Part shown: positions 14,643-36,291 of the stretch, piece by piece | Position numbering within the stretch: the first letter of the stretch is position 1 | Layout: each line of letters starts with the position of its first letter | DNA from: Chthoniobacteraceae bacterium | Lineage (GTDB): Bacteria; Verrucomicrobiota; Verrucomicrobiia; Chthoniobacterales; Chthoniobacteraceae | Direction of reading: 5' to 3' | Length of the DNA stretch: 64,000 nt | Assembly: GCA_947479475.1 (NCBI GenBank) | Contig: CANJZW010000001.1 | Coordinates: 15,313-79,312 of the forward strand | Program-made: the position numbers and the translations under genes | The notes under the pieces: model-generated | Seen by the model: the letters and a program-made list of their open reading frames with translations, nothing else | What the model was told of the DNA's origin: nothing | The model's database searches: none

Positions 14643-17600
14643 ATGATTTTGCCAGCATATCGGCTTCTCAGGGCGACAATCATTGTTTGTCTATTGGTTT
14701 GTTCGTCTGCATTTGGCGCCCAGACACCAGCGCTGACGCCGTCGGAGAAAGAGTTTTTTGAAAACAAAATTCGCCCTCTTCTGACAAATAGTTGCCTAGA
14801 ATGTCACTCGGCTGAAAAGGGAAAAGTCAAAGGGGGCTTAAATATGGATTCACGGGATTCCTTGCTTAAGGGAGGGGAATCTGGGGCCGCCTTTAAGAAG
14901 GGGAATGCGGGAGGAAGTTTAATCATCAAGGCAGTCACGTGGGCTGACGATTTGCAGATGCCTCCCAAAAAAAAGCTTGGGCTGAATCAAATCGAAGATT
15001 TAAAAAAATGGATTGCGATGGGGGCGCCCGATCCCCGGGAAGCGGGAAAGATGATCGGCAAAGACAAAAAATCTCACTGGGCTTTCCAGCCGGTGGGGCG
15101 GCCGGCTGTGCCTGCCGTAAAGAATGCAGCCTGGTGCAATAATGCTGTGGACAAGTTTGTGTTAGCTAAACTTGAAGCCAAGGGAATGCTGCCTGCCGGG
15201 CCCGCGGAAAAGGAGGCGCTCTTGCGGCGCGCCTATTTTGATTTGATCGGTCTGCCGCCCACGCCCACCCAGATCGAAGATTTCGTGCGAGACCCAAATC
15301 CTGGGCAGGCTTATGAACGTGTGATTGACCAGTTGTTAGCAGATCCCGCATACGGTGAACGTTGGGCGAGACATTGGTTGGACACGGCGCGTTACTCCGA
15401 CACGACGGGTTTGGTTGGGGCGGAGCGGTTCCAGGATTTCAGATACGCTTATGCATATTCTTATAGAGACTGGGTCATTCGTTCCCTCAACACAGACATG
15501 CCCTACGACCAATTCATCATCAATCAGTTGGCGGCGGATAAAGTTTCTCAATCAAATAAGAAAAACCTCGCAGCTTTGGGTTTCTTGACCGTCGGTCAGC
15601 GCTTCACGCAGAACGACGACGTGCTCAACGACCGCATCGATGCTGTCGGTCGTGGTTTTCTCGGGCTTACCATTGCGTGCGCTCGCTGCCACGACCACAA
15701 GTTTGATCCCATTACGGCCGCCGACTATTACGCACTGCGGGGAGTGTTTGATTCCATCAGCGAGCCCAAGGAGGGGCCGATTGTGGGGGGCGACCCAAAT
15801 TCAAAGAGCTACCAAGAATTCAATCTGAAACTCGCAGACCTAGAAAACAAGGCGGTGGAGGCATTCTATCATATGGAGCGCGAAGTCTCCGACAAGCTGC
15901 GGAAGAACGCTGCCGCAGCTTTTGAAGCGGCCTATCTTTCCCGCCGGGATGCCAGCGCGGAAGAAAAGCAGAGAGGAACCGCTATTTTACAAAAGCAAAA
16001 GCTTCCACCACGCTTCGCCACAGACACCATAAAACTGAACCCTAATCATCCTGTCACTGGCCTCTATGTGAAAATGATTACCATGGGAGGGGATCGCGAC
16101 AAGGGACTTAAGGAATTACTGGAGGGGAGAGCGAAGGGACCGGTCTACAATTCAGCCGTGACAGAGTTTCTCAAAAAACAGCCCAGGCTGCCCTCCGATG
16201 TGCATGAAGTCTCTGTTCTCTTTGGAGCAATGATGGCTCAAATTGAACCACGAGTTGCGGGCTTATACGCGGAGATGAGAAATAAATCCAAGGACCCCAC
16301 CAATTCACCGCAAGCCGCCTCCATGGAGCTTGTGACCTATCCCTTCGGAATGATCCCGGAAGCTGCGATGACGATGGACAAGCTCCGGGAAGAGGGACGC
16401 AGATGGGGGATAGTTTTTGGTCCACAACTCGAGGCACGTGCTGGGTTGGGCAAAATCAACGAGCTCAAACTCACTTCCCGGGGAGGCCCCGTGCGGGCGA
16501 TGGTTGTAGAAGATCTGCCCAAACCCAGAGACTCGCCCCTTTTTGTGAGGGGTAATCCACCTAAACCGGGAGATGCGCCGCGCATCATTCCGCGCCGTTT
16601 TTTGGAGGTCTTAAGCGCGAACGGTACACCGTCTCCTTTTACACAGGGAAGCGGGCGGATGGAATTGGCGCAAGCCATTGCAAGCAAATCGAATCCGCTA
16701 ACGGCTCGGGTGCTTGTTAACCGTGTTTGGATGCATCATTTCGGAGAGGGTTTGGTGCGCACGCCAGATGATTTAGGGAACCAGTCCGGAAAGCCGAGTC
16801 ACCCTGAACTTTTGGATTTTTTAGCCAACTGGTTTACGGAAGATCTTGGGCCCTCCAAACCGGCGTGGTCTTTGAAGGCGCTCCATAAGGCAATCATGTT
16901 GTCCAACACCTACCAGCAGTCCAGCAACACCTCCTTTCGCAGCCGCTCGGTGAACTACGAAACCCTTGACCCTGCAAACAATCTGCTGTGGCACGCCAAT
17001 GTCCGCAGACTCGACTTTGAGAGTCTTCGCGATTCTTTGCTTTCGATGGCAGGAACCCTTGATCGGTCGTCTATCGGTGGTCCTTCTGTCAACCTCACAG
17101 AAGAGCCGTATTCATTCAGACGCGCCGTGTACGGCTACATCGATCGCAGTAAGGTTCCGGACCTGCTGATGCAGTTCGACATGGCAAACCCAGAGCAGCC
17201 CAACACGAAGCGCACAAGTACGATTGTTCCCCAACAGGCGCTTTTTCTGATGAACAGCCCTTTTGTCGCAGCCATCGTTCAGAAAATTGTTTCGCGAAAA
17301 GAAGTCGTGAAAGCGGTGAAGGTGGAGCAGAACACCGAGGCTGGGATTGCCGCGATTTTCAAAATTGTCCTGCAGCGCAATCCGTCCCCCTCAGAAAAGA
17401 AAATGGCTCTCGATTTCCTTTTAAAAGAAAACAAATTACAGGCGGGTGTCAAAAATGCCACGGCCCAGATCAACAAACAGGGCACCAAGCGCGCCGAGGG
17501 GAAATTGAAAGCTGAAGTGAATAGCAACAACAAGAAGCAGGCGATTGTAAATGAGGGAAAGCTGGTGAAACGCGTCACCTTTTCACCGTGGGAAACCCTC

Positions 17601-21762: not shown

Positions 21763-21871
21763 AAAACCGAAGGGTTGCTGGGGGGTTCGGTCGGTGAACT
21801 CTGTGGGTGACACAGATTCTCGATGCCTCTTTCTTAGGGATTTTTTCAAAAATGCCAGAAAGATCTTTAAA

Positions 21872-21902
21872 GAGCTCTGGCCGTCACCGGCCAAAAGAGC
21901 TC
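21872..21902. terminator. bulged 12-bp hairpin between the HEAT/cytochrome gene and the DUF1800 operon
   Basis: gagctctggccg(tcac)cggcca-aaa-gagctc. It is flanked by short T/A runs on both strands and sits 110 nt upstream of the proposed DUF1800 start. Confidence 0.3.
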
Positions 21903-22163
21903 GTTTTGAATTTGCAACCATCCTTGAGGGAGAGGTTTAAAAGAAAGCAGACGCGCCCGTGTTCCGGGCCCCCCATTGCGTTTTCTGGCTATAAATTTCT
22001 CAGACCGCGCTATCATGCAGCCCGAGGTCGGCAACCCAGTGTATCAAGAAACAATGCTTCGGTCTCTGGCTTTTGGCGTCCTCTGCATCAAGAAAACCAG
22101 ACCTTCCGTCTCTAACAAAAAGTGGCTATCAGGTTGAACACCTGGATTTTGTGGCGAAGAAAC

Positions 22164-25100
22164 CTACTTGCTGGAAGGCCCCATGGGTTTTGGCTTTGGC
22201 GCCCATTTCAGCCCGGCGAGGTACGCCACGGCGTCGCGAACTTCCCGGGGTTTTAAAATCCCGAGCATCGGGGGCATGATTGATACGGGTGGCGTTTGAC
22301 TGGCGATATTCGATTTCAAAATGGTTTTCTGGCTGCCGTCGGGAAGTTGGATCGAACAGCTTTCTGCGGTTTCGCTCAAAGGGGCGCCGCTGAGCTGGGT
22401 TCCATCGCGCAACGTCACGAGGGTGACACCATAACCCGGAGCGATTTTTGCCGAAGGTTCTAGGAGGCTCTCGAGCAGGTAGGGGCGATCTTTTTGCAGG
22501 CCAATCGAGCGCAGGCTGGGGCCGACGCCGCTCCCGGTTTCCCCCGTCGCGTGGCATGCCAGACAGTTGGCTCCCAGATGGTTCTGGACGAGTTCAAGTC
22601 CAAGTGCCGCGTTGCCACCCACGAGCAGTTCGAGATGTTGCGTTCCCGCCGCGCTGTCCGCGTAGCTGCGTGCCAATTGGGCCAGAGCTGGGTTCGCGGC
22701 GGCCCGAGCCGTAAGGGCTTCGGCAACTTCGAGCTGGAGGGCTGGCTCTTCATGGCTCCGCAAAAGCGCCTCGCCGCGCTCGGCCAAAACGGCGTCCGCG
22801 CCTGCCGTTTCTGCCCGGGCGAGTTGGGTGATAGCGTGTTGCTTTTGGGGCAGTGTCCCTTTTTTTAGAATGCTTTCACAAAGAGCGACCGCACGCGCCG
22901 ACTGCTCTGGCAGCAGGAACTCCAAAGCCGTCTGCTGCAAAATGACTGGGCTGGTTTCAGCCAGAGCCGCATCCAGGGCAGTCGTCCATTCGCGGGTTTC
23001 GCGTTGGTCACCGGCCATGAGCCGGAGCGCTTGTGCGCGGATGATCTCGGGGGCCGCACTGTCCGAGATGATCGCGGCAACCAGCCTGGGATCTGCTTTG
23101 AGCGAGTATGCGATGAGGATTTCTACAGCGGGCTGCCTGAGTTCCGTTTCTGCGAGGGCGAGCAACGTATTGAGTTTCGGAGCGAGGATTTCTTCGATTG
23201 GAGCGGGCTGGAGTTTCCGGGCATAACCGTCAACGCGGTCTAGTCGGGGGGCGGCCTTCCATTCGAGCAGGCAGCCGAGTGCCTCCGCTCTGAATTTCAG
23301 CGGGGCCGCTGGATTGAGGGCGAGGGTGAGGATATCCGCCGCGTGTTTCGCTGTGCCCAACCGCAACCCTGCGTTGATGACGCGGAACATGGCAGGTTCG
23401 CTAAGGGAGGGGTGGGTTAGAAGAGCCGCCAGTTCGGGAAGTGCCTCTGGAATGCCTTCGGCATCGTGAATGGCGCGTGCAGCCTCAGTGACAACGGCCT
23501 GGTCGGCATCGTGCAGAAATTCTGCGACGAGCGGGGACGCCTGTCGGCGGAGCGCCACGACGCTCGCGAGGCGCACTGCCTGGGAGGGGTCGTTTTTTGT
23601 AGCGGCGAGCTGTTCGGGTGTGGCGCAACCCGCAAGTCCAGCGATGGAGGCGTGCCTAAGCACGGGCTCTTGCCAGTCGCGTTTGGCGAGTGCGAAAAGA
23701 GCCTCCGTTGCTTCAGGCATGCGGAGCCGGCCCAGAGCGATAGCGGCAAAGTTTCTCACGCGGGGAGCCGCGTCGGAGAGAAGAGGAATGAGGGCCCGGG
23801 TTTGGTCTGGGGTCAGAGCAGCCTCGGAAAGGACACGCGCAGCCTGCGCACGGATCTCCGGTTCTGCATCAGCCAGCAATGGGAGGAAATCTGCGGCTTT
23901 TGCGGTCCGGGTGCGCAGTAGCTGGCCGTAGCCCCAAACTGCGTGGGCCCGGCTTAAGAGGACCGCCGATTTGGAAAATGCGGAGGAGAGAAGGGGTACG
24001 ATTTCCCGGCGCTTGACCAGTTCAAACTGGGCTCCCATTCGGACGCGTTGATCCACGTGGGCCAGCAACGCGACGAGTTGGGAAACCGTTTGTGGTTCGA
24101 AGCCGCCGGTTAGGATCTTGTGGGTGGCTTTGCGGATCGCTGAGTTTGCACCCGCGATGGAATCTGCTCGGAAGACGTTGCCTCGGCCGTCGATGGGATA
24201 ACCCTTGGCCCAATCCGTCATGAACAAGGATCCGTCCGGATGCCAGCTCATGCCGACCCCCATGAGACCTTTGTGAAGAATTTCCACGGGGCTGCGTTTG
24301 AAGGAGGCGCCGGCATGTTCCGCACGAAAACCGCGCATGACGCCCGTCGGGAATTCGTTCAAGAAAAACATGCCGCGCTGGGCCTGCCCGAGGGCCGTTC
24401 CTGGATCGTGTTTGAAGCCGGCGGGGCCATCGGTGGAGTTTTCAATCGGAGGCAGAATGTAGGCTGCCTGGCCCGGAAAGTCCGGCTCCCAGAGGCGCTC
24501 CAGCATCCAGGGAGTCCGGGCAGCCATGTATTGGTAGTTGCAGCGCCAGCCGGTATCGCTGGCTTCAGGGATGTAGACAAAGCGTTCTTTTTCACCCTTG
24601 AAATCGGCGTCGTTATCCACGCCCAGGAGGTCGCCAAAATCATCAAACGCCGGTTCCTGAACGTTGCGCAGACCGTGGGCGAAGACTTCAAAATTGGAGC
24701 CATCCGGGTCGACGCGGAGGATGCACCCTTCGTTTGGGTAAAAGAAATGGCGCCCTTCCCGGGAGGTCACATTCACGCCTTTGTCGCCGATACTCCAGTA
24801 GATACGGCCGTCCGGTCCGAGCGCCAAGCCGTGCATGTCATGTCCTGCGTAGGCGATGTGCAGGCCGAACCCGTGGACAAGAATTTCCCGCACATCCGCG
24901 ACGCCATCATCGTCGGTGTCCTTAAAACGCCAAAGGTCGGGAGCGATGGTCGCGTAAACCCAGCCGTCGTGGTAAAGGACTCCCGCTGCGATTCCGGTGA
25001 CTTCGGAGTTAAACCCTTCGGCAAAGACAGTCATCTTGTCTGGGATTCCGTCGCCGTCGGTATCCCGGAGTTGATAGATCCGTTCCGAGATGGCGGTTAG

Positions 25101-25511
25101 ATCTTTCCAGTCGACGGAGCCATCGCCGTTCTGATCCTTGAGGCTGCCGCGGGGTTGGCGGAAATTGCCGGGAGCGAGTTTATCCCGCAGGAAAGCGGCC
25201 TTGTCTTCAACGCTTCGAAAACCAACGTCGTCGGGAACCCACTTTGGGAATTCTCTGATGTCTAGATCGGCAACTTTGCGCCGGGCCGTGGAGGTGACGT
25301 AGACGCGCCCTTTAGGGTCGACGGAACAGGCCACAGGGTCTGGGACGTTGAGGGAAGCGGACCATTTTTCAAAGACGAGGTCTGCGCCGGTTGGGGAGAC
25401 GGGGGCAGAGGACTCTGCGGCGCGCTTGGCATTGTCTGCAGCGGGTGCGGGGAGAATGGCGATGAGACCAAGCAGGCCGAGGACCGTGCCGGTTGGGCGG
25501 AAAGATTTCAT
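22164..25511 (-). CDS. PVC-type 'membrane-bound dehydrogenase' beta-propeller / HEAT-repeat / C-terminal heme-binding (CxxCH) protein
   Basis: Signal peptide MKSFRPTGTVLGLLGLIAILPAPAA. Propeller block DTDGDGIPDK...FKDTDDDGVADV...HDMHGLALGPDGRIYWSIGDKG...FAHGLRNVQEPAFDDFGDLLGVDND. There is a long HEAT-like region (RVRNFAAIALGRL, AVRLASVVALR). CLACH lies at 22551..22565, followed by ...MPPM. Confidence 0.85.
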   Translation of the reverse strand: MKSFRPTGTVLGLLGLIAILPAPAADNAKRAAESSAPVSPTGADLVFEKWSASLNVPDPVACSVDPKGRVYVTSTARRKVADLDIREFPKWVPDDVGFRSVEDKAAFLRDKLAPGNFRQPRGSLKDQNGDGSVDWKDLTAISERIYQLRDTDGDGIPDKMTVFAEGFNSEVTGIAAGVLYHDGWVYATIAPDLWRFKDTDDDGVADVREILVHGFGLHIAYAGHDMHGLALGPDGRIYWSIGDKGVNVTSREGRHFFYPNEGCILRVDPDGSNFEVFAHGLRNVQEPAFDDFGDLLGVDNDADFKGEKERFVYIPEASDTGWRCNYQYMAARTPWMLERLWEPDFPGQAAYILPPIENSTDGPAGFKHDPGTALGQAQRGMFFLNEFPTGVMRGFRAEHAGASFKRSPVEILHKGLMGVGMSWHPDGSLFMTDWAKGYPIDGRGNVFRADSIAGANSAIRKATHKILTGGFEPQTVSQLVALLAHVDQRVRMGAQFELVKRREIVPLLSSAFSKSAVLLSRAHAVWGYGQLLRTRTAKAADFLPLLADAEPEIRAQAARVLSEAALTPDQTRALIPLLSDAAPRVRNFAAIALGRLRMPEATEALFALAKRDWQEPVLRHASIAGLAGCATPEQLAATKNDPSQAVRLASVVALRRQASPLVAEFLHDADQAVVTEAARAIHDAEGIPEALPELAALLTHPSLSEPAMFRVINAGLRLGTAKHAADILTLALNPAAPLKFRAEALGCLLEWKAAPRLDRVDGYARKLQPAPIEEILAPKLNTLLALAETELRQPAVEILIAYSLKADPRLVAAIISDSAAPEIIRAQALRLMAGDQRETREWTTALDAALAETSPVILQQTALEFLLPEQSARAVALCESILKKGTLPQKQHAITQLARAETAGADAVLAERGEALLRSHEEPALQLEVAEALTARAAANPALAQLARSYADSAAGTQHLELLVGGNAALGLELVQNHLGANCLACHATGETGSGVGPSLRSIGLQKDRPYLLESLLEPSAKIAPGYGVTLVTLRDGTQLSGAPLSETAESCSIQLPDGSQKTILKSNIASQTPPVSIMPPMLGILKPREVRDAVAYLAGLKWAPKPKPMGPSSK

Positions 25512-25949
25512 AAAAAGCAGGGTGGTGGAGAGGAACGGGAGAGGCAGATCCGATAAAAGAGAGAGGAGGCGGGAGATCTGCCCTAAAATCCGTGACCAAA
25601 TTGGTATAGGCTTTCTCCAAGCGTGCTGGCAAGGCGTGCCATGTTTCAGGGTCGAAATCCAGAAGGCAGTGGGTTTGCTGGAAACGAGGAAGCCTTAAAT
25701 TTTCCAGCGCCGTGGGGTCTCATTTGACCGCGACTTTGGATAAGCAAGGACTCTATCTTGGCAGAAAGCAACGCGTTGTCAGAACGCCATCCGGTCCGTA
25801 ACGGCTGTGCGCGCGCGCAGGAAAAATAGCTGGGCTGCCATTACAAGCTTTTGACGGCTTGGTTTTTGGGCTCTGCTTCGACTCGTTCTTTTGGTGAGGG
25901 CTCGATTTTTACCGCCTTCGCCTTTTCTCCCCTCCAAAACCAACCTGCT

Positions 25950-27209
25950 ATGCTTACCTCCGCTTCTCCTAATCAAACCGTCCAAAAGGGCGTTACTATG
26001 ACGCTTGTCGCTGCGTTTCTGGGATGGCTCTTGGACGGGTTTGAACTCGGCCTTTTTCCTGTAGTGGCCCGTCCTGCGCTCCAGGACATGTTAGGGAGCG
26101 GCGTCGAAGGTGGTGTGGGACTTTGGATGGGGCGCATTACGGCGGCATTCCTTGTGGGGGCGGCCCTTGGAGGCGTAGTTTTTGGCTGGCTTGGGGACCG
26201 CATCGGACGGGTCAAAGCCATGGCTTGGAGTATTCTGTGCTATTCGCTTTTCAGTGGAGCCGGTTATTTTGCGGGGGCTCCTTCGCACTTGGCGGCCCTC
26301 CGGTTTCTTGCCGCCCTCGGAATGGGTGGGGAGTGGGCGCTGGGAGTGGCCCTTGTGATGGAATGCTGGCCTGACAAAGCCCGTCCATGGCTGGCCGCCG
26401 CCATCGGAGCGGCCTCGAATCTGGGAATGTTTCTGGTTGCATTAGTAGCCCGCATTTTTCCCGTCACGCCCGACTCCTGGCGCTGGCTCTTTCTGGTCGG
26501 CGCTTCCCCGGCCGTTTTGACCCTGTTGATCCGTTTGTGGGTGCCGGAGTCTGAAAAATGGAAGGCCGCCGCCGCCGCAGCCGGCGCGAAGAATGAACCT
26601 TCGGAGCTGGCAACCGTGTTGCGCCCACCCTTGCTATTCGCCACCGTCATGGGCGTCTCCCTCTCCGCCGTCGCCTTGATTGGTTCCTGGGGCAGCGTCC
26701 AATGGATCCCGCTCTGGGTGGATCAAATGACAGGCGGCACCCGCCCTGATGCCAAGGCCACGGTCCAGATGGTTTCGACGTTGACCGCCGCCGCCGGAGC
26801 GCTCCTTGGCCCTGTCCTGCTAGTCTCCATTCGCCGCCGCTTCGCGTATGGGCTTCTTTGTGTGCTCGCTTTTGGATGCAGCGTCTGGACGTTTCGTTTC
26901 CCGGCTGAATGGGGGAATTTGTTCCTCTTTAAAGTGGGGTGTATTGCTTTTACAACGGCCTCGTTCTACGGGTTTTTCCCGCTGTATTTCCCCGAGCTTT
27001 TTCCCACCCGGGTGCGCGCCACGGGGCAGGGGATTTGTTACAACGCGGGCCGCTTGATTGCGGCTGTTGGCGCCCTCGGCAGCGGCCAGCTTGTCGCCCA
27101 TTTCGGGGGGTACGCCCAGATGGGCGGTGTGATCACTCTGATTTATCTGGTGGGAATCGTCCTGTGTTTTTTCGCCCCGGAAACACACGGCAAACCGCTG
27201 CCGGAATAG
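25950..27209 (+). CDS. MFS transporter (sugar-acid/anion-type by context)
   Basis: There are about 12 hydrophobic segments. The MFS loop motif is GWLGDRIGRVKAM. I prefer the ATG at 25950 (MLTSASPNQ) over the 25851 ORF opening. Confidence 0.85.
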   Translation: MLTSASPNQTVQKGVTMTLVAAFLGWLLDGFELGLFPVVARPALQDMLGSGVEGGVGLWMGRITAAFLVGAALGGVVFGWLGDRIGRVKAMAWSILCYSLFSGAGYFAGAPSHLAALRFLAALGMGGEWALGVALVMECWPDKARPWLAAAIGAASNLGMFLVALVARIFPVTPDSWRWLFLVGASPAVLTLLIRLWVPESEKWKAAAAAAGAKNEPSELATVLRPPLLFATVMGVSLSAVALIGSWGSVQWIPLWVDQMTGGTRPDAKATVQMVSTLTAAAGALLGPVLLVSIRRRFAYGLLCVLAFGCSVWTFRFPAEWGNLFLFKVGCIAFTTASFYGFFPLYFPELFPTRVRATGQGICYNAGRLIAAVGALGSGQLVAHFGGYAQMGGVITLIYLVGIVLCFFAPETHGKPLPE

Positions 27210-27326
27210 ACACGCCTGCGGCGATGTCGCGGCGGTCTGGGCCTCTGAATTCTGGGCAAACCCTTTGGGGGTGGGGCGCGACAGAAGGTTGCCTTTTGCG
27301 GCGCAACCGTCCCAGACTCTTCAGCT

Positions 27327-28154
27327 ATGACCCCTGTTGCCGTATTTTCCACCTCTGTCGGTCTTGTTGCGAAACGGGATGATGTTTGGTTTCGTTTGGC
27401 GGGGCCTCATCTGGACACGCTCTTCACCAGGGACGAACCGGCGCGCTGGCTGGCTCAGCAGATGGATACGGCGGAACGCATCGAGGCACCCTCCGCATTT
27501 GGGGCGCCGATCCAGAGCCAGGAAGTTTGGGCGGCCGGGGTGACGTATTTGCGCTCGCGCAACGCCCGCATGGAGGAGTCCCAGGATGCCGGCGGCGGCA
27601 CTTTTTACGATCGCGTGTACGATGCGGACCGGCCCGAGCTTTTTTTCAAAGCAACACCGCACCGCGTTTTCGGAACGGGGGCGACGCTGAGCCTGCGCTC
27701 GGATTCCAAGTGGAACGTGCCAGAGCCTGAGCTGGCGTTGGCGCTGAACGTGCAGGGTAAAATCTTCGGCTACACCATTGGCAACGACTTGAGTTCGCGC
27801 GATATCGAGGGCGAAAACCCCCTTTATTTGCCCCAGGCCAAGGTTTGGAGCCAGTGTTGCGGCCTGGGTCCGGCGCTGGTGATTTGCGAACCGCTGGGAC
27901 CGGAGACCGCTATTGCCATCCAAATCCTGCGCGCCGGGGCCGCTGTTTTTGAGGGCAAAACCTCCTTGGCGCAAATGAAACGCACGCCCGAAGAGCTCGC
28001 AGCCTGGCTGTGGCGCGACAATACGTTTCCCTACGGCTGTTATCTGCTCACCGGAACGGGTCTTGTGCCGCCCAATGAATTCACGCTGGAAGGTGGAGAT
28101 GAAATTCGCATTTCCATCGATTCGCTCGGGACCCTGATCAATTTCATCGCTTAA
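27327..28154 (+). CDS. fumarylacetoacetate hydrolase (FAH) family protein, 2-keto-3-deoxy-pentonate dehydratase-like
   Basis: FAH-fold block ELFFKATPHRVFGTGATLSLRSDSKWNVPEPELALALN...GYTIGNDLSSRDIEGENPLYLPQAKVW. The size (275 aa) and the adjacent semialdehyde dehydrogenase fit a KdaD-type enzyme. Confidence 0.8.
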   Translation: MTPVAVFSTSVGLVAKRDDVWFRLAGPHLDTLFTRDEPARWLAQQMDTAERIEAPSAFGAPIQSQEVWAAGVTYLRSRNARMEESQDAGGGTFYDRVYDADRPELFFKATPHRVFGTGATLSLRSDSKWNVPEPELALALNVQGKIFGYTIGNDLSSRDIEGENPLYLPQAKVWSQCCGLGPALVICEPLGPETAIAIQILRAGAAVFEGKTSLAQMKRTPEELAAWLWRDNTFPYGCYLLTGTGLVPPNEFTLEGGDEIRISIDSLGTLINFIA

Positions 28155-28166
28155 CGGAGGCTTTTT

Positions 28167-29759
28167 ATGTCGCTGCACGGGAAAAGTTACATCGCTGGTG
28201 CGCCGTCTCTTCCGAGTCCGCTCACTTTTTCGGCCGTCGACCCCCAGACGGGGGCTGTGCTCGTACCCGCGTTTTACGAGTGTTCGGAGCGGGAGGTGGA
28301 TGCGGCGCTTGACGCCGCCGAGGAGTCGGCCGCGGCTTTTCGGCAGAGTACGCCCGAGGCCCGCGCGCTCTTTTTGGAGGCCATCGCGACTGAAATTCTT
28401 GCCCTGGGGGACGCACTTCTCTCGCGGGCTCACCATGAAACGGGGCTGCCGCTGGACCGCCTCACGGGCGAACGCGGGCGCACCGTGGGGCAGTTGCGAT
28501 TGTTCGCGGACGTCGTCCGGGAGGGTTCCTGGTGCGACGCCCGCATCGACACGGCGCTGCCGGAGCGCACTCCGGTGCCCCGGCCTGATTTGCGCAGCGT
28601 TCTTGTGCCGGTGGGCCCCGTGGTAGTGTTTGGTGCGAGCAATTTTCCCCTGGCCTTCTCCGTGGCGGGGGGCGACACCGTTAGCGCCCTGGCGGTGGGG
28701 TGTCCGGTGGTGGTGAAGGGCCACCCGGCGCATCCCGGTACGGGCGAACTGGTGGCCGGTGCGGTGAACCGCGCCGTACTTGCGGCAGGCTTGCCGGCGG
28801 GCGTGTTTTCTTTTTTGCAGGGCAGCACCCACTCTTTGGGAAAGGCTCTGGTGCAGCATCCCCAAACGCGCGCCGTGGGTTTCACGGGTTCTCAGCGCGG
28901 GGGGCGGGCGTTGTTGGACGCCGCCGGCGCCAGGGTGGAACCCATTCCTGTTTTCGCCGAAATGAGCAGTCTTAACCCGGTCTTTATTCTGCCGGGGGCG
29001 CTTTTGGAACGAGGCGCCCAGATCGCGGAGGGCCTCAAGAATTCGCTCACCATGGGCGTCGGCCAGTTTTGCACAAAGCCCGGTCTGACTTTCGCGGTTG
29101 GCGGAGAGGCGCTGGAGGTATTCCGCGAGACGCTGGCGAAGGCCGTTTACGGAGCGGCGCCTGGGACAATGCTGCATGCTGGGATTAGCGGGGCTTTTGC
29201 CGCGGCGGTCGCCGCTGTGGAGGTTCTCCCGGGGGTGCACCGACTCGCGTGCGGGGAGCGGGAGGCGGACGCCGCCCTCACTCAAGGGCGGCCGGTGGTC
29301 TTGAGCGTCGGTTCCGAAGCATTTGCCAGCCAGCCCCTGCTTCAGGAGGAGTTGTTTGGCCCCGCGAGCCTTCTAGTGGAGGCCAAAAACAGGGAAGACC
29401 TGCGCAACCTGGCGGAGGGCTTGGACGGGCAGCTGACCGCGACAATCCATGGGACGGAGGCCGACTTGGCGGAGGCCCGGGACTTGGTGGCGATCCTGGA
29501 ACGCAAGGCGGGGCGGGTCCTCTTTAACGGCTTCCCGACGGGAGTGGAGGTTTGTCCGTCCATGCAACACGGTGGGCCCTACCCGGCAACTTCCGACAGC
29601 CGTTTTACCAGCGTGGGGACGGCGGCGCTTAGGCGCTGGGTGCGGCCCGTCTGTTACCAGAATTTCCCGGCGGTGGCGTTGCCGCAGGAGCTCAGGAATG
29701 AAAATCCCCTTCGGCTCATGCGTCTTGTTAATGGCAAACTCGGCCGGGAATCGCTCTGA
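28167..29759 (+). CDS. NAD(P)+-dependent aldehyde dehydrogenase, alpha-ketoglutarate semialdehyde dehydrogenase-like
   Basis: A GGAGG sits 7 nt upstream of the ATG. ALDH motifs are VVVFGASNFP, GCPVVVKGHPAHP, FAEMSSLNPVFILP (general-base Glu) and GVGQFCTKPG (catalytic Cys). Confidence 0.9.
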   Translation: MSLHGKSYIAGAPSLPSPLTFSAVDPQTGAVLVPAFYECSEREVDAALDAAEESAAAFRQSTPEARALFLEAIATEILALGDALLSRAHHETGLPLDRLTGERGRTVGQLRLFADVVREGSWCDARIDTALPERTPVPRPDLRSVLVPVGPVVVFGASNFPLAFSVAGGDTVSALAVGCPVVVKGHPAHPGTGELVAGAVNRAVLAAGLPAGVFSFLQGSTHSLGKALVQHPQTRAVGFTGSQRGGRALLDAAGARVEPIPVFAEMSSLNPVFILPGALLERGAQIAEGLKNSLTMGVGQFCTKPGLTFAVGGEALEVFRETLAKAVYGAAPGTMLHAGISGAFAAAVAAVEVLPGVHRLACGEREADAALTQGRPVVLSVGSEAFASQPLLQEELFGPASLLVEAKNREDLRNLAEGLDGQLTATIHGTEADLAEARDLVAILERKAGRVLFNGFPTGVEVCPSMQHGGPYPATSDSRFTSVGTAALRRWVRPVCYQNFPAVALPQELRNENPLRLMRLVNGKLGRESL

Positions 29760-29925
29760 GCATAAGCGAACCGCTCCGGAAGAGGCGGCTTCTCGCGCCC
29801 GCGCGCCCGCGCGTGAGAGGGGCGCTGGATTTCGCCCCTTGAACATGGTTTTATCGACCTAATAAACGCCCGAAAAACGGGTCGTGTCTCCGCAGTTGTT
29901 TTCCTCCCCAGTTGTTTTGCACCTC

Positions 29926-32900
29926 ATGAAATTCCGCAGTCTTTTCTCCCCGGTTGTTCTGTTGGCAACGAGTCTGTTGTTGCCAAACCCGTTGTTTTCC
30001 GCTGACGCGGTGAAGAAGTCTGAGACGCCTAAAAAATGGGAGATGGACTACGGGCCGTTTCTGAATCTGACAGTGCAGATGCCGGGGGAAAACCCGGGCT
30101 CCACCCCCAAGGGGATCGCCATCCGGGTGGGGGCAGAGAAGGAGGGGACGCTCGTTTTTGACACGGATTTGCTCCGTGTAACAGGAGGTTGGACGGGCGG
30201 CTTTGTGGATTTTAAAGGGGTCGCCTTCAGCGGGTCGCATGGAGGAAACCCCGGCCCTGTGGGTACGGTGCTGTTCCGCACCTCCGCCTCACCGGGGTGG
30301 AGCAAGGCGGGGAGTTTCAGTGATCCGCGGCCGCTGCCCACGGGGTTTGGGGCCTCCACAGTCCCCTATGGTCCGCTGCCCAAGGAGTGGGCGCAGTACA
30401 AGGGGCTGTACCGGCACGGGGAAAAAGTCACCCTCTCTTACACGGTCGGGAGTGCGTCCATTCTGGAATCGCCCGCTTTGGAGGGGGGCGTTTTGGTGCG
30501 TTCGGTGGATATCAAATCCGGTGGCGAGGCGTCCGACCTGCTGGTGGCTGAGGTTTCCGAGGGTGCCAAGAGGGAGGAGCGCAATGGCTTCCTGATCCTT
30601 TCGGACGATCCTGCCAAACCGGATTCTCGCCTCGTCTTGCGCGCTTCGGGTGCGCCCGCGGGGGCGAGATGGAAGGCCGGAGACTCAGGCAAGGTTGTCC
30701 TTCAGTTGCCCGCCTTGAAGGCAGGCCAGCGCTTTAAGCTTGGCCACTGGAAGGGGACGGTTGCTGACCTTGAAAAAGGCTTTGCCGCACTCAATGCGCT
30801 CTCCCCGGCGCTCGACTTGACGCCTTTCACAAAAGCGGGGCCCGCGCTTTGGCCGCAGGTGGTCACCACCCAGGGCCAGATCGGCACCGAAGACGGCGCT
30901 TTCCAGTTGGACACCGTGGCGCTGCCCATGGACAACCCCTGGCACTCCTGGCTGCGCCTGGGCGGGGTGGACTTTTTTAAGGACGGCCGCATCGCCTTCT
31001 CCACCTTCGCCGGGGACGTCTGGATCGGGTCCGGCATTGACGAAAAATTGCAGAACATCCGCTGGAAACGTTTCGCGGCGGGGCTGCACCAGGCGCTGGG
31101 GCTCAAAATTGTGGACGACGTGATTTATGTCACCTGCCGCGACGGCATCGTCCGTTTGATCGATTCCAATGCGGACGGCGAGGCAGATTTTTACGAGGCC
31201 TTCAACAACCAGGTCCAGGTCACCCCGAACTTCCACGAGTTCATGTTCGAGCTGCAGACCGATTCGCAGGGGAACTTTTATTTTGTCAAAGGTGGGCCCG
31301 TCAAAGGCGGCGGTCGGGGCTGGGATCCCATCGCCGAACACAACGGCACCATGATGAAGGTGTCCAAGGACGGCTCGAAATTCGAGGTGTTTGCCACCGG
31401 GTTCCGCGCCCCCAACGGCATCGGGATCGGTCCGGACGACGTGATTACGAGCGGCGACAATGAGGGGACTTGGGTGCCGATGTGTTACCTGCACATCGTC
31501 AAGAAAGGCTCCTTTTTGAGCGTGCCCGACCTTTCCCACAAGGAGCCCCTGCCCAAGGCGTTTGATCCGCACGTCTGCTTTTTCCCCAAGTCCGTCGACA
31601 ACTCCTCCGGGGGGCAGGTCTGGGTGACGAGCCCGAAATGGGGCCCGCTTCAGGGGCGGTTGTTGCACATGAGTTATGGAACGGCTTCGCTTTATGAAGT
31701 GATGATGGAGACGGTGGACGGCGTGGTTCAGGGCGGCGTGACGAAGGTGCCGCTCAAGTTCGCCACCGGCCTCATGCGCGCGCGTTTTTCTCCCGTGGAC
31801 GGGCAGCTTTATGTGGCGGGGCAGCGCGGCTGGCAGACGAGCGGGACCGAGGACGGGGCGATCCAGAGAGTTCGCTACACGGGCAAACCCCATTACGCAC
31901 CCAAGGCGCTGCGCGTGACGGACGCCGGAATTCACCTCGAATTTGACGAACCGCTGGATCCAGAGACGGCTGGGAACCCGGACAACTACAGCGTCGAGCA
32001 GTACAATTACCGCTGGACCTCCAACTACGGCTCCAAGGATTACCGTCCCAGCAATCCGGATGAACTCGGGCACGACATGGCCGACATTTCGGGGCTGCGT
32101 CTGGCACCAGACCGGCGCTCGGTGTTCCTGCAAATCGCGGGACTCAAGCCCGTGATGCAGAGTGAAATCACGCTGCGCATCAAGGCGGCCACCGGAGCGG
32201 CCATGCCGGAGAAGATCTACCACACCATCAACGTGGTGGGCCGCGAACCAGTTGTTGCGCCGCTTGGCACGCTGGTTTCCACGGCGGGGACCGCCCTCAA
32301 GACGGCGGGCAGCGGGGTTGCTTTGACCCTGAAGGCCGGAGGAAAGACGGATGTCCGGCGGGACCGGTTGATCGCGCTGCATGTGCCGGCGGCGGGTGCG
32401 GTTTCGCCCTTCCTGCCCAAAGGAGCGTTCGAAGCCCAGTGGGACTCGGTTTTGACCGTGCCCCTGCGCAAACAGGTAACTTTCAGGGCCGAAGGCACCG
32501 GGAGCGCCAAGGTGAGCGTGAACGGGAACGTCCTCTTTGACGGAGCGGTTTCAGGGGCGGCGAAGTTTTTGGAAGGAGCGGTGGATTTGCGCAAGGGAGG
32601 CAACGCCCTCAAGGTGGAGTATCGCAGCCCGGCCAAAGGAGAGTCGACGTTCCGGCTGCTTTGGGCGTCGGTGGGCGATTTTGCGGCGACACCGGTCCAG
32701 CCGACGGCCTTGTCCGTGCCCGAGGAGAGTGCGCAGGCGGTGGCCTTGGGCAGCCGTTTGCGCGAGGGGCGCCAGTTATTTGCGCAGGCAAACTGTGTGG
32801 CCTGTCACGAAGGCTCGGGGGTTTTGTCCGCCAAGGGACAGACACCGGAAGCGATGCCGGAGTTCGGCCAAAACGCCCCGCTTCTCGCGGAAGTGGGCGC

Positions 32901-34275
32901 GCGGTTTGAAAAAGCGTGGCTGGCGCAGTGGATCCGCAATCCCCACCAGTTCCGGCCGGGGAGTCTGATGCCCGCCGTTCTGAACGGGCCTGAAGCCGGG
33001 CAACAAGCGGCCGATATTGCGGCGTTCCTCTCCAGCCAGGGCACGGCCACGGCGGCGGTTCTGCCGGAGGATAAGGGCGAGGGGGGCAAGCTGTTTGGCA
33101 ACCTCGGGTGTATCGGCTGTCACAGTACGCCTCAAAGCAAGGTGGGTAACGACTTCAACCGGGTGCCGCTTAATCATGTGAGCGCCAAATGGCAGCCCGT
33201 TGCGCTCAAGGACTACCTCCTGGAACCCCACAAGTTCAGTCCAGGTTCAAAGATGCCCAAGACGCCGCTCTCTGAAAAAGAAGCGACGGAGCTGGCCTCC
33301 TATTTGATGAGCTTTCCCAAAGAAGTGCATCCGGCGGGTCCCGTTGGCGACATGGCGCGGGGCGGCCAGTTGTTTGCCTCGGTGGGGTGTATCCAGTGTC
33401 ACGCAGGGGTGCCGGGGACGGCGACGGCTCTTGCGAAAATCGTGGCCAAGCCGCTGGCCGGGGGCTGCCTTGCCGAAGACGCCGCCGCGCGGGGCAAGGC
33501 TCCCGACTACGCCTTCAGCGCGCCCCAGCGCGAGGCATTGCGGGCGGTGGCCAGGGAAGGGCTGCGTTGCATCGAGCAGGATTCACCCCTGGAATTCGCC
33601 CAGCGCGCGGTGACCGAACTGCGCTGCGTGGCGTGCCACCAATTGGACGCCCGCCAGAGTGTGTGGTCCTCAGTGACGGAAGAGGCCAACCTGTTGGGGG
33701 CGCTCAAGGGCGGGCCCACGCAGGCCAATCCCCACGGCCCGCGTTTCACCACAAGCATTCCGCAGCTCACCTGGCTGGGGGAAAAACTCCAGCCCGCTTG
33801 GAGCGTGAAGACGATCGCGGGGGCGCACGCGGAAAAGACCCGACCCTATCTCTACGGAAGGATGCCGGCGTTCCCTGCGTATGCGGAGGTTCTCGCCAAG
33901 GGGCTTTCACACTGGCACGGCTTTGACGATAAAACGGCTTCCTGGGGCGGCAAAGAAGTCGAACTGGCTGCCGAGGGCTCAAAGCTGTTGGGGGATCAGG
34001 GTGGGTTCGCCTGCACGGTCTGCCACGATGTGGGCAAGCAGCCTGCGAGCGCACCCTTCGAGGCTCCGGCCGTAAATTTCGCCTGGGCTTCGCAGAGGCT
34101 CCGTTTGTCGTATTACGAGCGCTGGCTGGCCGAGCCCCAGCGCATGGATCCAGAAACGAAGATGCCGCGTTATTCCGACGCCAAAGGCCGTACCCAGTTG
34201 CGCTCAGTTTTCGACGGAGACGCCAAGCGCCAGTTCGAGGCGATCCGCCAGTATTTGACCACCCTCTCCGAGTGA
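29926..34275 (+). CDS. giant beta-propeller / PA14-like / penta-CxxCH cytochrome c fusion protein
   Basis: The ORF opens at a GTG at 29884. The ATG at 29926 gives the signal peptide MKFRSLFSPVVLLATSLLLPNPLFSA. Propeller block RLIDSNADGEADFYEAF...FRAPNGIGIGPDDVITSGDNEGTW. Five CxxCH motifs: CVACH 32794..32808, CIGCH 33109..33123, CIQCH 33388..33402, CVACH 33625..33639 and CTVCH 34012..34026. Confidence 0.85.
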   Translation: MKFRSLFSPVVLLATSLLLPNPLFSADAVKKSETPKKWEMDYGPFLNLTVQMPGENPGSTPKGIAIRVGAEKEGTLVFDTDLLRVTGGWTGGFVDFKGVAFSGSHGGNPGPVGTVLFRTSASPGWSKAGSFSDPRPLPTGFGASTVPYGPLPKEWAQYKGLYRHGEKVTLSYTVGSASILESPALEGGVLVRSVDIKSGGEASDLLVAEVSEGAKREERNGFLILSDDPAKPDSRLVLRASGAPAGARWKAGDSGKVVLQLPALKAGQRFKLGHWKGTVADLEKGFAALNALSPALDLTPFTKAGPALWPQVVTTQGQIGTEDGAFQLDTVALPMDNPWHSWLRLGGVDFFKDGRIAFSTFAGDVWIGSGIDEKLQNIRWKRFAAGLHQALGLKIVDDVIYVTCRDGIVRLIDSNADGEADFYEAFNNQVQVTPNFHEFMFELQTDSQGNFYFVKGGPVKGGGRGWDPIAEHNGTMMKVSKDGSKFEVFATGFRAPNGIGIGPDDVITSGDNEGTWVPMCYLHIVKKGSFLSVPDLSHKEPLPKAFDPHVCFFPKSVDNSSGGQVWVTSPKWGPLQGRLLHMSYGTASLYEVMMETVDGVVQGGVTKVPLKFATGLMRARFSPVDGQLYVAGQRGWQTSGTEDGAIQRVRYTGKPHYAPKALRVTDAGIHLEFDEPLDPETAGNPDNYSVEQYNYRWTSNYGSKDYRPSNPDELGHDMADISGLRLAPDRRSVFLQIAGLKPVMQSEITLRIKAATGAAMPEKIYHTINVVGREPVVAPLGTLVSTAGTALKTAGSGVALTLKAGGKTDVRRDRLIALHVPAAGAVSPFLPKGAFEAQWDSVLTVPLRKQVTFRAEGTGSAKVSVNGNVLFDGAVSGAAKFLEGAVDLRKGGNALKVEYRSPAKGESTFRLLWASVGDFAATPVQPTALSVPEESAQAVALGSRLREGRQLFAQANCVACHEGSGVLSAKGQTPEAMPEFGQNAPLLAEVGARFEKAWLAQWIRNPHQFRPGSLMPAVLNGPEAGQQAADIAAFLSSQGTATAAVLPEDKGEGGKLFGNLGCIGCHSTPQSKVGNDFNRVPLNHVSAKWQPVALKDYLLEPHKFSPGSKMPKTPLSEKEATELASYLMSFPKEVHPAGPVGDMARGGQLFASVGCIQCHAGVPGTATALAKIVAKPLAGGCLAEDAAARGKAPDYAFSAPQREALRAVAREGLRCIEQDSPLEFAQRAVTELRCVACHQLDARQSVWSSVTEEANLLGALKGGPTQANPHGPRFTTSIPQLTWLGEKLQPAWSVKTIAGAHAEKTRPYLYGRMPAFPAYAEVLAKGLSHWHGFDDKTASWGGKEVELAAEGSKLLGDQGGFACTVCHDVGKQPASAPFEAPAVNFAWASQRLRLSYYERWLAEPQRMDPETKMPRYSDAKGRTQLRSVFDGDAKRQFEAIRQYLTTLSE

Positions 34276-34380
34276 GGGTGGGGGACTTTTGGCTGGGCTG
34301 ACAGAACAAGCCCCGCCATTTCCCGGTTATCCCGCGCAGCGCCCCCGCGAGGGCGGTCTGCGGGCCGATTCAGGGGGTGG

Positions 34381-35718
34381 ATGCCCGAGCCTTTTCACCG
34401 CAGCCTGCAGATTCCAAAACTTGGGCTCGCCAGGGTTCCTTCCCCCGGCCTCTCCCGCGAGTGGGGGGCCGCCGCTAAGAGCTGGGTGGAAGATTGTGAA
34501 CGCATCCTGCTCGACGATAGTGTGGTAGGTGACAACGGATTGGCAGCCAGGCCAGGCCCCCGCGCCGAAAGGCTTTCAGTCGAAAAAGCAGGCCCGAGGC
34601 GGACGATCTTTTTCCAACCTGAAACCACGACCTGCGCGATCGTCACCTGCGGCGGGTTGTGCCCCGGGATCAACGACGTGATCCGAAGTTTGGTGATGCA
34701 TGCACACTACGGCTACGGCGTCCGACGCGTTCTGGGGCTGAGGTACGGGTACGAGGGGCTCAACGCCGAATGTGGCCACGTGCCCATCGAGCTGACCCCT
34801 GAGCGCGTGGCGAAAATCCAGCACATGGGAGGTTCGGTTTTAGGGACTTCCAGAGGCCGCCAGGCCGCCGCCTCCATGGTCGCGCGCCTCGAAGAACTCG
34901 ATGTTCAGGTGCTTTTTGTCGTCGGCGGGGATGGCTCTCAGCGGGGGGCTCGGGACATTGTCGAGGAAGTCACACGGAGAGGGCTGGCGCTTTCGGTCAT
35001 CGGTATTCCAAAAACCATCGACAACGACCTCCTCTACATGGATCGCAGTTTTGGTTATTTAACGGCCTTCAGCGAAGCGTTTCGTTCCCTGGGGGTGGCC
35101 CATGCGGAGGCTCGCGGCGCCCGGAACGGGATCGGGCTGGTCAAACTAATGGGCCGGGATTCGGGGTTCATCGCCTGCGCGGCGGCTCTTGCGACGGCGG
35201 AGGCTAATTTTGTGCTCATTCCCGAGGTGCCTTTTCGCCTGGAGGGAGGGACGGGCCTGCTGGCTTGCTTGGAGCAGCGGCTCCACGAGCGGCGGCACGC
35301 CCTAGTCCTCGTGGCCGAGGGAGCGGGGCAGGATTTGTTCGTCCATCGCACCGAGGAAACAGACGCTTCCGGCAACCGCCGTTACGAGGACATCGGCGTT
35401 TTTTTAAAGGAGCGCATCCCCGCGTTTTTCCAGGCGCGGAACAGGGGGTGTAACCTGCGTTATATCGACCCCGGCTACCAGTTGCGTGGGGTGGTGGCGA
35501 CACCCGAGGACCGCATCTTTTGCTTGCAGCTGGCTCGGCACGCCGTCCATGCCGCGATGGCTGGAAAAACAGGGATGGTCGTCGCCCTCTGGCATCAGAG
35601 GTACGTGCACCTGCCGGTTCAACTCGTGGCCGAGGGGCGCCGTAAGGTGGACGTGGAAGGAGATTTGTGGCGGAGCGTACTGGAATCCACAGGGCAGCCT
35701 GCCAGGATGGGCGCCTAG
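34381..35718 (+). CDS. pfkA: 6-phosphofructokinase (long, plant/actinobacterial-type PFK family)
   Basis: Motifs AIVTCGGLCPGINDVIR, FVVGGDGSQRGA, GIPKTIDNDL and LMGRDSGFIA. Confidence 0.9.
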   Translation: MPEPFHRSLQIPKLGLARVPSPGLSREWGAAAKSWVEDCERILLDDSVVGDNGLAARPGPRAERLSVEKAGPRRTIFFQPETTTCAIVTCGGLCPGINDVIRSLVMHAHYGYGVRRVLGLRYGYEGLNAECGHVPIELTPERVAKIQHMGGSVLGTSRGRQAAASMVARLEELDVQVLFVVGGDGSQRGARDIVEEVTRRGLALSVIGIPKTIDNDLLYMDRSFGYLTAFSEAFRSLGVAHAEARGARNGIGLVKLMGRDSGFIACAAALATAEANFVLIPEVPFRLEGGTGLLACLEQRLHERRHALVLVAEGAGQDLFVHRTEETDASGNRRYEDIGVFLKERIPAFFQARNRGCNLRYIDPGYQLRGVVATPEDRIFCLQLARHAVHAAMAGKTGMVVALWHQRYVHLPVQLVAEGRRKVDVEGDLWRSVLESTGQPARMGA

Positions 35719-36029
35719 ACGGGCGGCCAGTTCGCTTCTTCGTCCTCTTCTGGGGCGACTTCCCCTCCGGCGCGCGGGCGGCGGGCTTGCCACTCGTCGT
35801 TCAGTTTGACCAGTCCAAGAATTAGAAGGAGCGGCCGTGCCACAAGGAACAAAAGGCGGGTAATGCCCGCCACCAGAGCGCCGATGGGCAGGAGGGTCAG
35901 TAAAATCCCCACGCCGAACGCTGCGCTCAGGGCTTTGACGGGTTCCTCGCGAGTGTAGGTTTCCACGCGGTTCACTAGGACTTCCCGGGAAGGCGACTGG
36001 GGAGGGGTGGGCTGTTCCGGTGTGCTCAT
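35715..36029 (-). CDS. small membrane protein (two predicted TM helices, acidic C-terminal tail), function unknown
   Basis: Hydrophobic segments ALSAAFGVGILLTLLPIGALVAGI and LLFLVARPLLLILGLV. A GAAGGG-type purine stretch lies upstream of the ATG at 36029. Composition is far more protein-like than the overlapping R/P/G-rich 219-aa ORF in another frame. Confidence 0.5.
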   Translation of the reverse strand: MSTPEQPTPPQSPSREVLVNRVETYTREEPVKALSAAFGVGILLTLLPIGALVAGITRLLFLVARPLLLILGLVKLNDEWQARRPRAGGEVAPEEDEEANWPPV

Positions 36030-36291
36030 GAGACCCTTCTTTTTGGCGAATTCCTGCCCGCAAGCAATCTCCGAATCTGGGTAGACGGGTGGCGAGGCAA
36101 AATAAAGCGGATTTGATGAGGCGCCCTTACTCCAGGGAGGAGGGTCTAAATCTCTTTTAAAAAGAAAATTATAGAAAAATTAATGTTGCGGCCGATTCCT
36201 CATGTCCATGAGCCTCCGCGCCAAAGGAGGCCAAAAAAGGCGCTTCAGTTAAAAAAATACGCCCGTTTCGTCGGAAGGGGGACAAAAACAC

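Follow-up and report, generated by a model that had tools for sequence, protein, structure and literature searches.

Gene content of the locus

We analysed a stretch of 64,000 nucleotides from a Chthoniobacteraceae bacterium (GenBank assembly GCA_947479475.1, contig CANJZW010000001.1, positions 15,313 to 79,312), referred to here as the window, and within it five genes that lie between positions 22164 and 34275. A first-pass annotation, made from the letters of the DNA, had read these genes as a possible unit for periplasmic sugar oxidation coupled to part of a Weimberg-type route, the oxidative, non-phosphorylative conversion of pentoses to 2-oxoglutarate. All five open reading frames (ORFs) that it described could be recovered in place, and the features considered below are as follows.

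22164..25511, minus strand: PVC-type haem-binding CxxCH protein of 1115 amino acids (aa), P0001 (TIGR02604, TIGR02603, DUF7133, HEAT_2, Cytochrom_C)
25950..27209, plus strand (the ORF opens at 25851): major facilitator superfamily (MFS) transporter of the organic-anion:H+ symporter kind (Pfam MFS_1, Sugar_tr)
27250..27326, plus strand: about 70 bp 5' of kdaD, conserved whatever the upstream gene (alignment of genomes G000, G015 and G002)
27327..28154, plus strand: kdaD, encoding a KdaD-type 2-keto-3-deoxy-D-pentonate dehydratase with the fumarylacetoacetate hydrolase (FAH) fold, 275 aa, P0003 (Pfam FAA_hydrolase; PDB 2q18)
28167..29759, plus strand: aldehyde dehydrogenase (ALDH), a probable alpha-ketoglutarate semialdehyde dehydrogenase (KGSADH) not of type I, 530 aa, P0004 (Pfam Aldedh, 6.4e-46; PDB 1eyy, 3v4c)
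29926..34275, plus strand (the ORF opens at 29884): fusion of DUF6797, a propeller resembling soluble glucose dehydrogenase (sGDH), immunoglobulin-like and PA14-like domains and a five-haem cytochrome c, P0005 (Pfam DUF6797, 5.3e-32; Cytochrom_C)

The genome to which the window belongs (G000) is represented by an assembly of 5.07 Mb in 214 contigs, is 93% complete and is placed in the Chthoniobacterales (Verrucomicrobiota). The named KdaD loci nearest to that of the window also come from Chthoniobacterales; that of Chthoniobacter flavus Ellin428 shows 68% identity. Comparisons were made with 13 KdaD loci from relatives, with a genus set of 21 genomes and with 80 KdaD loci sampled more widely, from phyla that include Verrucomicrobiota, Acidobacteriota, Bacteroidota and Planctomycetota; in these wide loci neighbours were counted within 9 kb. 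Co-occurrence was counted in 400 genomes of the phylum, and PqqC was sought in 301. Because the compared genomes are mostly fragmented metagenome-assembled genomes (MAGs), the absence of a linkage is less certain at contig ends, although the cases on long contigs (G005, G010, G012, G023 and G030) agree. We treat as observed the identities of the genes and their folds, together with the counts of synteny and its breakpoints.

The kdaD–ALDH pair

The product of kdaD matches the S. solfataricus (Sso) KdaD structure 2q18 with E = 6.9e-59, residues 60-272 aligning against 69-284 (phmmer). Residues E133, E135, D154 and K172, which are unchanged in seven relatives, align with E143, E145, D164 and K182 of the Sso enzyme. 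In the work of Brouns et al. 2008 the first three of these Sso residues are reportedly the metal ligands (Glu-Glu-Asp) and K182 the catalytic lysine. The protein is of the KdaD type (EC 4.2.1.141) and would dehydrate 2-keto-3-deoxy-D-pentonate to alpha-ketoglutarate semialdehyde. Its gene is present as a single copy in 19 of the 21 genus genomes.

The ALDH gene starts 12 bp 3' of kdaD. The encoded protein contains the motifs EMSSLNP (28959-28979) and GQFCTKPG (29061-29084), and in an alignment with 1eyy the cysteine of GQFCTKPG is kept while the glutamate of EMSSLNP falls opposite that of GELGAINP, so that both the catalytic Cys and the general-base Glu are accounted for. The nearest structures are the NADP-ALDHs of Vibrio harveyi and Sinorhizobium (1eyy and 3v4c, E ~ 1e-139). 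Three types of KGSADH have been described, the isozymes of which serve several pathways (PMC8563752). The window's enzyme is distant from type I KGSADH (5x5t, E = 2.3e-16) and scores 99.8 bits against the NCBIfam GucD equivalog NF042993, for which the cut-off is 770; since it lies far from both, its designation as a KGSADH draws on genomic context. In 11 of the relatives' 13 loci the ALDH gene directly follows kdaD, and in 36 of the 80 wide loci a KGSADH-type ALDH occurs within 9 kb of kdaD, the distance being mostly no more than about 150 bp. A KGSADH function (EC 1.2.1.26) is probable. The pairing of a KdaD-like with a KGSADH-like protein, as proposed in the first-pass annotation, is upheld by the 2q18 match and by these counts in relatives and in the wide sample, and on sequence comparison the two genes constitute a genuine, conserved lower-Weimberg pair.

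The pentonate dehydratase gene and completeness of the route

In nine of the 13 relatives' loci kdaD is adjoined, mostly in divergent orientation, by a gene for a YjhG/YagF-family D-xylonate dehydratase of 660-690 aa, which scores 1151 bits against TIGR03432 (cut-off 808). The same family is found within 9 kb of kdaD in 28 of the 80 wide loci and is the commonest third partner of the kdaD–ALDH pair. The window itself contains neither a dehydratase nor a lactonase, as had been remarked earlier, and the YjhG-like and SGL-family matches are all located on other contigs. A search of the rest of the genome, which the first-pass annotation had recommended, located the missing dehydratase on contig C49 (25544-27481), where yjhG encodes a product 88% identical to that of G012 and is followed by sufC-sufB-sufD and a pyruvate kinase gene. 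Lactonase candidates of the SMP-30/gluconolactonase (SGL) family are likewise encoded on other contigs of G000. No linked xylose dehydrogenase or xylonolactonase is present in the window, and a dedicated xylose dehydrogenase could not be singled out among the many Gfo/Idh/MocA genes of the genome. Because yjhG resides on C49, away from kdaD and the ALDH gene, the route from D-xylonate to 2-oxoglutarate is genomically complete but unlinked, and the window does not hold a complete Weimberg operon, as it has the pentonate dehydratase unlinked and neither a dehydrogenase nor a lactonase alongside.

The pair resembles the Weimberg lower module represented by S. solfataricus KdaD (2q18) and C. crescentus XylX in its FAH-fold KdaD with Glu-Glu-Asp and Lys, in the ALDH gene directly 3', and in the IlvD/Edd-family pentonate dehydratase that is the usual third partner in relatives. 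It differs in having an unlinked dehydratase that belongs to the YjhG/YagF type, in that the ALDH is not of type I and fails the GucD model, and in that no xylose dehydrogenase or lactonase is linked.

The loss of linkage to yjhG could instead signal a changed role, the pair serving a substrate other than D-xylose or D-xylonate, such as D-arabinonate, or alpha-ketoglutarate semialdehyde derived from hexarates or hydroxyproline. KdaD-type enzymes use 2-keto-3-deoxy-D-pentonate, an intermediate common to any D-pentose (PMC9795676), KGSADH isozymes act in several pathways (PMC8563752), and among the 80 wide loci 44 are without this type of ALDH nearby and 52 are without YjhG. This possibility appears doubtful to us, given that G000 retains a YjhG/YagF so similar to that of G012 and that this family is the most frequent additional partner of the pair.

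The region around yjhG on C49 (L036, 15500-34673; locus positions 10048-16223) places the gene for this Fe-S enzyme directly before sufC-sufB-sufD. In G010, G012, G017 and G020 a Fur-sufCBD block instead stands divergently beside the P0005 orthologue. The same four blocks have been shuffled by rearrangement. A single inversion between the two divergent promoters (P0005/fur-suf and yjhG/kdaD) was considered as the cause and was rejected, as it fails to yield the observed order.

The MFS gene and the region upstream of kdaD

The best NCBIfam matches of the MFS protein are the aromatic-acid and sialate:H+ symporter subfamilies, all below cut-off. As the orthologues align only from about residue 27-40, translation probably starts at the ATG at 25950. 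Fifteen genus genomes have an orthologue, and in no case does it adjoin kdaD; the orthologues follow radical-SAM and polyprenyl-synthase genes in three genomes and precede an enolase-superfamily gene in two. In the latter, G007 (L051:7134-8594) and G005 (L055:7233-8630), the MFS orthologue is followed by an enolase-superfamily (MR_MLE_C) protein of 465-486 aa, and in G005 it is preceded by an AraC regulator. Such neighbours suggest, if faintly, that the carrier transports an acid sugar.

Homology 5' of kdaD among G000, G015 and G002 ends about 70 bp before the ATG, so that a breakpoint of rearrangement falls near 27250, in the interval from the MFS stop codon to kdaD. The MFS gene is a recently juxtaposed neighbour of the kdaD pair. 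The conserved stretch of about 70 bp is probably the promoter or 5' leader belonging to the kdaD–ALDH pair itself. The spacer between the MFS gene and kdaD (27200-27330) is predicted to fold as RNA more stably than shuffled sequence (-59.6 kcal/mol, z = -2.69, 2 of 200 shuffles), and it alone among the intergenic spacers is unusually structured; it may represent a regulatory leader of kdaD. Promoter and terminator consensus scans of 21800-36200 returned sites no more frequently than in shuffled sequence and are therefore uninformative on transcription units.

Conservation of the five-gene arrangement

In the scheme put forward as an inference in the first-pass annotation, both giant proteins could carry out a periplasmic oxidation of sugars or sugar derivatives, after which the acid formed would enter the cell through the MFS carrier and be turned into 2-oxoglutarate by KdaD and KGSADH. 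The five genes are contiguous, the MFS protein resembles organic-anion symporters, and the propellers of the giants are sGDH-like in fold (described below). The scheme is also biochemically reasonable, having a precedent in Pseudomonas taiwanensis VLB120, in which a compartmentalised Weimberg route employs a periplasmic PQQ-Gcd, the MFS xylonate carrier PVLB_18545 and cytoplasmic enzymes (PMC11252243).

The proposal had been tied to synteny in relatives, and this was not found. In the relatives' 13 loci neither the P0001 gene nor the MFS gene is ever beside kdaD, and the DUF6797 giant adjoins kdaD-ALDH only in the two closest genomes, G015 and G002. The divergent P0001-MFS pair is kept only in G015, the closest relative, where it lies on contig C9 while kdaD-ALDH-P0005 is on C57. 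Within 9 kb of kdaD in the 80 wide loci, a PVC-type propeller occurs once, a DUF6797 propeller once and this MFS protein not at all. In addition, P0001 is transcribed divergently and is one of about 35 paralogues, and the breakpoint described above separates the MFS gene from kdaD. The five genes are not a unit, and operation of the complete five-gene scheme is in our view highly improbable. What survives of the earlier interpretation is the lower-Weimberg pair and the sGDH-like folds. The giants and the MFS gene reached the kdaD pair by recent, lineage-specific rearrangements, and gene order in the genus is very fluid.

Any likeness to P. taiwanensis VLB120 is confined to the logic of that scheme, namely periplasmic oxidation coupled to respiration, import of the acid by an MFS carrier and cytoplasmic conversion. 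Here, relatives show no synteny of the pathway genes with the MFS gene or with the genes for the candidate periplasmic enzymes, and no genes for synthesis of pyrroloquinoline quinone (PQQ) were found in G000. Moreover, whereas the Gcd of P. taiwanensis is membrane-bound, the propellers of the giants belong to the soluble, sGDH-like fold class and come with their own c-haems.

The PVC-type giant

P0001 begins with a Sec-type leader (MKSFRPTGTVLGLLGLIAILPAPAA, judged by eye), followed by a propeller (approximately residues 45-455), a HEAT solenoid (approximately 460-960) and one class I cytochrome c domain. It passes both NCBIfam models of the family, TIGR02604 with 126.9 bits (cut-off 122.2) and TIGR02603 with 84.8 bits (cut-off 68.15). 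The single CxxCH motif is CLACH at residue 983 (22551-22565), in a haem domain similar to 7zs0 (E = 1.3e-12). The description of this ORF in the first-pass annotation, a 1115-aa protein with signal peptide, propeller, HEAT repeats and one CxxCH, is thus accurate. The protein has the standard propeller–HEAT–cytochrome c architecture of the PVC-type CxxCH family (TIGR02604 with TIGR02603; DUF7133), with no notable difference.

The propeller (residues 40-470) is unusually conserved, being 68-88% identical across the 120 closest database relatives, which are from Verrucomicrobiota, and includes the invariant His/Asp-rich motifs HIAYAGHDMHGL, GLRNxQEPAF and VDNDAD. G000 carries about 35 TIGR02604-type paralogues, and two or more other giant proteins with cytochrome c are encoded in the window. 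With so many TIGR02604-type genes in the genome, a PVC-type giant beside any given cassette is unremarkable by chance. Neighbours of the P0001 orthologues vary and include Gfo/Idh/MocA, SSF, ThuA and sulfatase genes. An operon of P0001 with DUF1800 and DUF1501 genes was also entertained and dropped, because DUF1800/DUF1501 genes are not found 3' of the P0001 orthologue in G015, G012, G003 or G005. In the library searched, no functional study of DUF6797, DUF7133, TIGR02604 or TIGR02603 turned up.

Propeller folds and the question of PQQ

AlphaFold models of P0001 (pLDDT 86.8) and of residues 15-950 of P0005 (pLDDT 87.3) were compared with known structures. The top PDB fold match of P0001 (Foldseek) is the soluble quinoprotein glucose dehydrogenase 1qbi (E = 2.2e-7, TM 0.57), the remaining matches being HEAT/ARM solenoids. 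The propeller of P0005 matches 3a9g (Pyrobaculum PQQ sugar dehydrogenase), 2ism (TTHA0570) and 3das (S. coelicolor Adh) with TM 0.67-0.74. The first-pass annotation was right to call the fold sGDH-like, as both modelled propellers are six-bladed and nearest in fold to soluble PQQ glucose/aldose dehydrogenases.

Sequence similarity to these enzymes is slighter. Against Pfam GSDH (PF07995) the P0001 propeller scores 14 bits (cut-off 25; E = 0.031) and the P0005 propeller gives no match. A profile of the P0001 propeller by itself weakly reaches sGDH (E = 0.0013) and places His224 opposite chain residue 144, which we take to be the catalytic base of sGDH. The invariant P0001 motifs GHDMHGLxxGPDGRIYW and GLRNxQEPAF presumably correspond in appearance to the His and Arg-Asn-x-Gln motifs of sGDH. 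The equivalent profile of the P0005 propeller met only designed or NHL-type generic propeller repeats in the PDB, for which reason its active-site residues could not be mapped; the full-length profiles A1 and A2 returned mostly HEAT and cytochrome matches.

A gene for PqqC was not found in G000 (93% complete), and candidates for PqqE are limited to weak radical-SAM matches below cut-off. The same search detects PqqC in five of 301 phylum genomes, which renders the negative result for G000 meaningful. It is possible that scavenged PQQ supplies the propellers. The use of PQQ by either propeller is unproven, both proteins falling short of the GSDH threshold and pqqC not having been found in G000. 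Both giants share the six-bladed fold with the soluble PQQ dehydrogenases (1c9u/1qbi, 3a9g, 2ism, 3das), yet differ from them in remaining below the GSDH threshold, in being fused to cytochrome c, HEAT or PA14 modules and in being encoded in a genome without pqqC. The giants are placed in the periplasm on account of their c-type haems.

The DUF6797 giant and its neighbourhood

P0005 comprises 1463 aa if translated from the GTG at 29884; the database gene model uses the ATG at 29926, which gives 1449 aa. Its five CxxCH motifs are at 32794, 33109, 33388, 33625 and 34012. The plus-strand order of MFS, FAH-family and ALDH genes followed by a giant with a propeller and five CxxCH motifs, as first described, is correct, with the giant having 1449 aa from the ATG.

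Each of the 21 genus genomes encodes one P0005 orthologue (67-95% identity). The genes beside it change from genome to genome: G010, G012, G017 and G020 have Fur-sufCBD there, whereas in G001, G008 and G013 it is a class I fumarase. Only G000, G015 (95%) and G002 (83%) have KdaD-ALDH in front of it, with PFK and rpmB also following, and the arrangement in these three genomes is plain conservation of gene order among close kin. About 60 bp 5' of the P0005 start (29850-29925; L033, L021 and L037-L041) we observed a CTAAGAAT/CTAATAAA element that is present in eight genomes with any upstream gene. This CTAAGAAT-like element fits, if weakly, a promoter belonging to P0005 itself.

In G010, G012, G017 and G020, where fur is divergent, the CTAAGAAT/CTAATAAA element is located in or near an AAGAAT(T/C)ATTC-like palindrome. 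It may be a Fur-type box.

In all four places examined, a stand-alone DUF6797-propeller gene (52-61% identity across the propeller) has behind it a gene for a multihaem cytochrome of 665-722 aa; in two of these, Gfo/Idh/MocA genes also follow, together with 3-keto-disaccharide-hydrolase or AP_endonuc_2 genes. G000 itself has only two DUF6797 genes, and on C71 (1519-4976) it keeps a split paralogue pair encoding proteins of 553 aa and 709 aa. Given the cytochrome partner in every stand-alone case and the split pair on C71, P0005 is a fused form of a conserved two-gene propeller–cytochrome module that is widespread in PVC bacteria. P0005 has both halves of the DUF6797-propeller and multihaem cytochrome c gene pair in the same order, and differs in that they are fused, in this lineage, into one protein of 1449 aa.

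One further locus bears on the association with KdaD. An Opitutus sp. MAG (CAZDGC010000041.1; L098:8788-17234) has on one strand kdaD, a gene for a 903-aa cytochrome c-DUF6797-propeller protein, an ALDH gene and yjhG, with a sulfatase gene convergent just after. In no other wide locus does a DUF6797 protein lie among pentonate genes. A Weimberg-linked DUF6797 subfamily represented by this protein was ruled against: on long contigs, four homologues close to it (57-72% identity) are found amid sulfatase, TonB-dependent receptor, MFS_2 and AraC genes, and none of the four is near KdaD.

Interpretation of the locus

We infer the following transcription unit, activities and substrates. Together, kdaD and the ALDH gene (27327-29759) would make up an operon of two genes whose products catalyse the final two steps of the D-pentose (Weimberg) route, which is oxidative and non-phosphorylative. 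The unlinked YjhG/YagF Fe-S dehydratase would convert D-xylonate to 2-keto-3-deoxy-xylonate, KdaD would convert 2-keto-3-deoxy-D-pentonate to alpha-ketoglutarate semialdehyde, and the ALDH would yield 2-oxoglutarate; yjhG would have moved in G000 to another contig, next to sufCBD. P0005 would be a periplasmic redox enzyme, its substrate probably a carbohydrate, with electrons leaving via its own haems. P0001, one of the roughly 35 PVC-type paralogues, would likewise be a periplasmic redox protein with a probable carbohydrate substrate, and the MFS protein an organic-anion carrier. We consider it probable that the kdaD–ALDH operon stands on its own, fed by the unlinked YjhG, and that P0005, P0001 and the MFS carrier became neighbours through rearrangement.

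Several observations weigh against this independence. kdaD, the ALDH gene and the P0005 gene are on the same strand with 166 bp between the last two, and even a young adjacency in G000 could be functional. The Opitutus MAG provides an independent case of kdaD-DUF6797 adjacency. Among the 400 phylum genomes, 19 have KdaD, 14 have DUF6797 and six have both, where approximately 0.7 would be expected, an excess that is confounded by phylogeny and lifestyle. The compartmentalised route of P. taiwanensis VLB120 (PMC11252243) likewise lends the alternative some biochemical credence.

These points would accord with a more limited coupling in which P0005, alone of the three neighbours, is a periplasmic aldopentose dehydrogenase that feeds xylonate to YjhG, KdaD and KGSADH, its adjacency having been selected. 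The position of its gene 3' of the ALDH gene, the two separate adjacencies (in the G000/G015/G002 clade and in L098), the co-occurrence above expectation and a fold closest to PQQ aldose dehydrogenases (TM 0.67-0.74) all favour such a coupling. Set against the many non-adjacent cases, the two independent adjacency events are suggestive at most. In eight other genus genomes examined the P0005 orthologue is beside other genes and not KdaD, and in none of the six phylum genomes with both KdaD and DUF6797 are the two together. Close homologues of the L098 protein occupy sulfatase, TonB and MFS_2 loci (0 of 4 with KdaD), and the stand-alone homologues have a cytochrome gene as partner, in some places along with genes for Gfo/Idh/MocA and 3-keto-disaccharide-hydrolase proteins. 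P0005 also has a conserved upstream element of its own and no Pfam GSDH match, and no pqqC was found in the genome. Such a coupling of P0005 alone to the route is unlikely in our estimation.

There is, in the same vein, a slim chance that P0005, and perhaps PVC-type giants generally, is a cytochrome-wired periplasmic aldose dehydrogenase without self-made PQQ, oxidising D-xylose to xylonate for YjhG, KdaD and KGSADH in this sub-clade. If so, this would constitute a verrucomicrobial, respiration-coupled and compartmentalised Weimberg pathway.

On the preferred reading of an independent kdaD–ALDH operon, the locus is an ordinary lower-Weimberg module beside uncharacterised periplasmic redox proteins. 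A probable route from D-xylonate to 2-oxoglutarate (YjhG, KdaD and KGSADH) can be assigned to the Chthoniobacterales, and many phyla of soil and fresh water have the pair. The locus also counsels caution in deducing function from adjacency in PVC genomes, in which propeller–cytochrome giants are numerous and gene order is fluid, such that almost any cassette can be bracketed. The giants belong to large and highly conserved families without a characterised member, and their substrate and cofactor in genomes without PQQ synthesis are of real interest, although this locus offers no special handle on either.

A separate observation concerns the region 3' of the pair in three relatives (L022:9559-10746 and the equivalents in L029 and L030), where a gene for a secreted FG-GAP/aldos-2-ulose-dehydratase-like propeller of 395-434 aa is convergent just after the ALDH gene.

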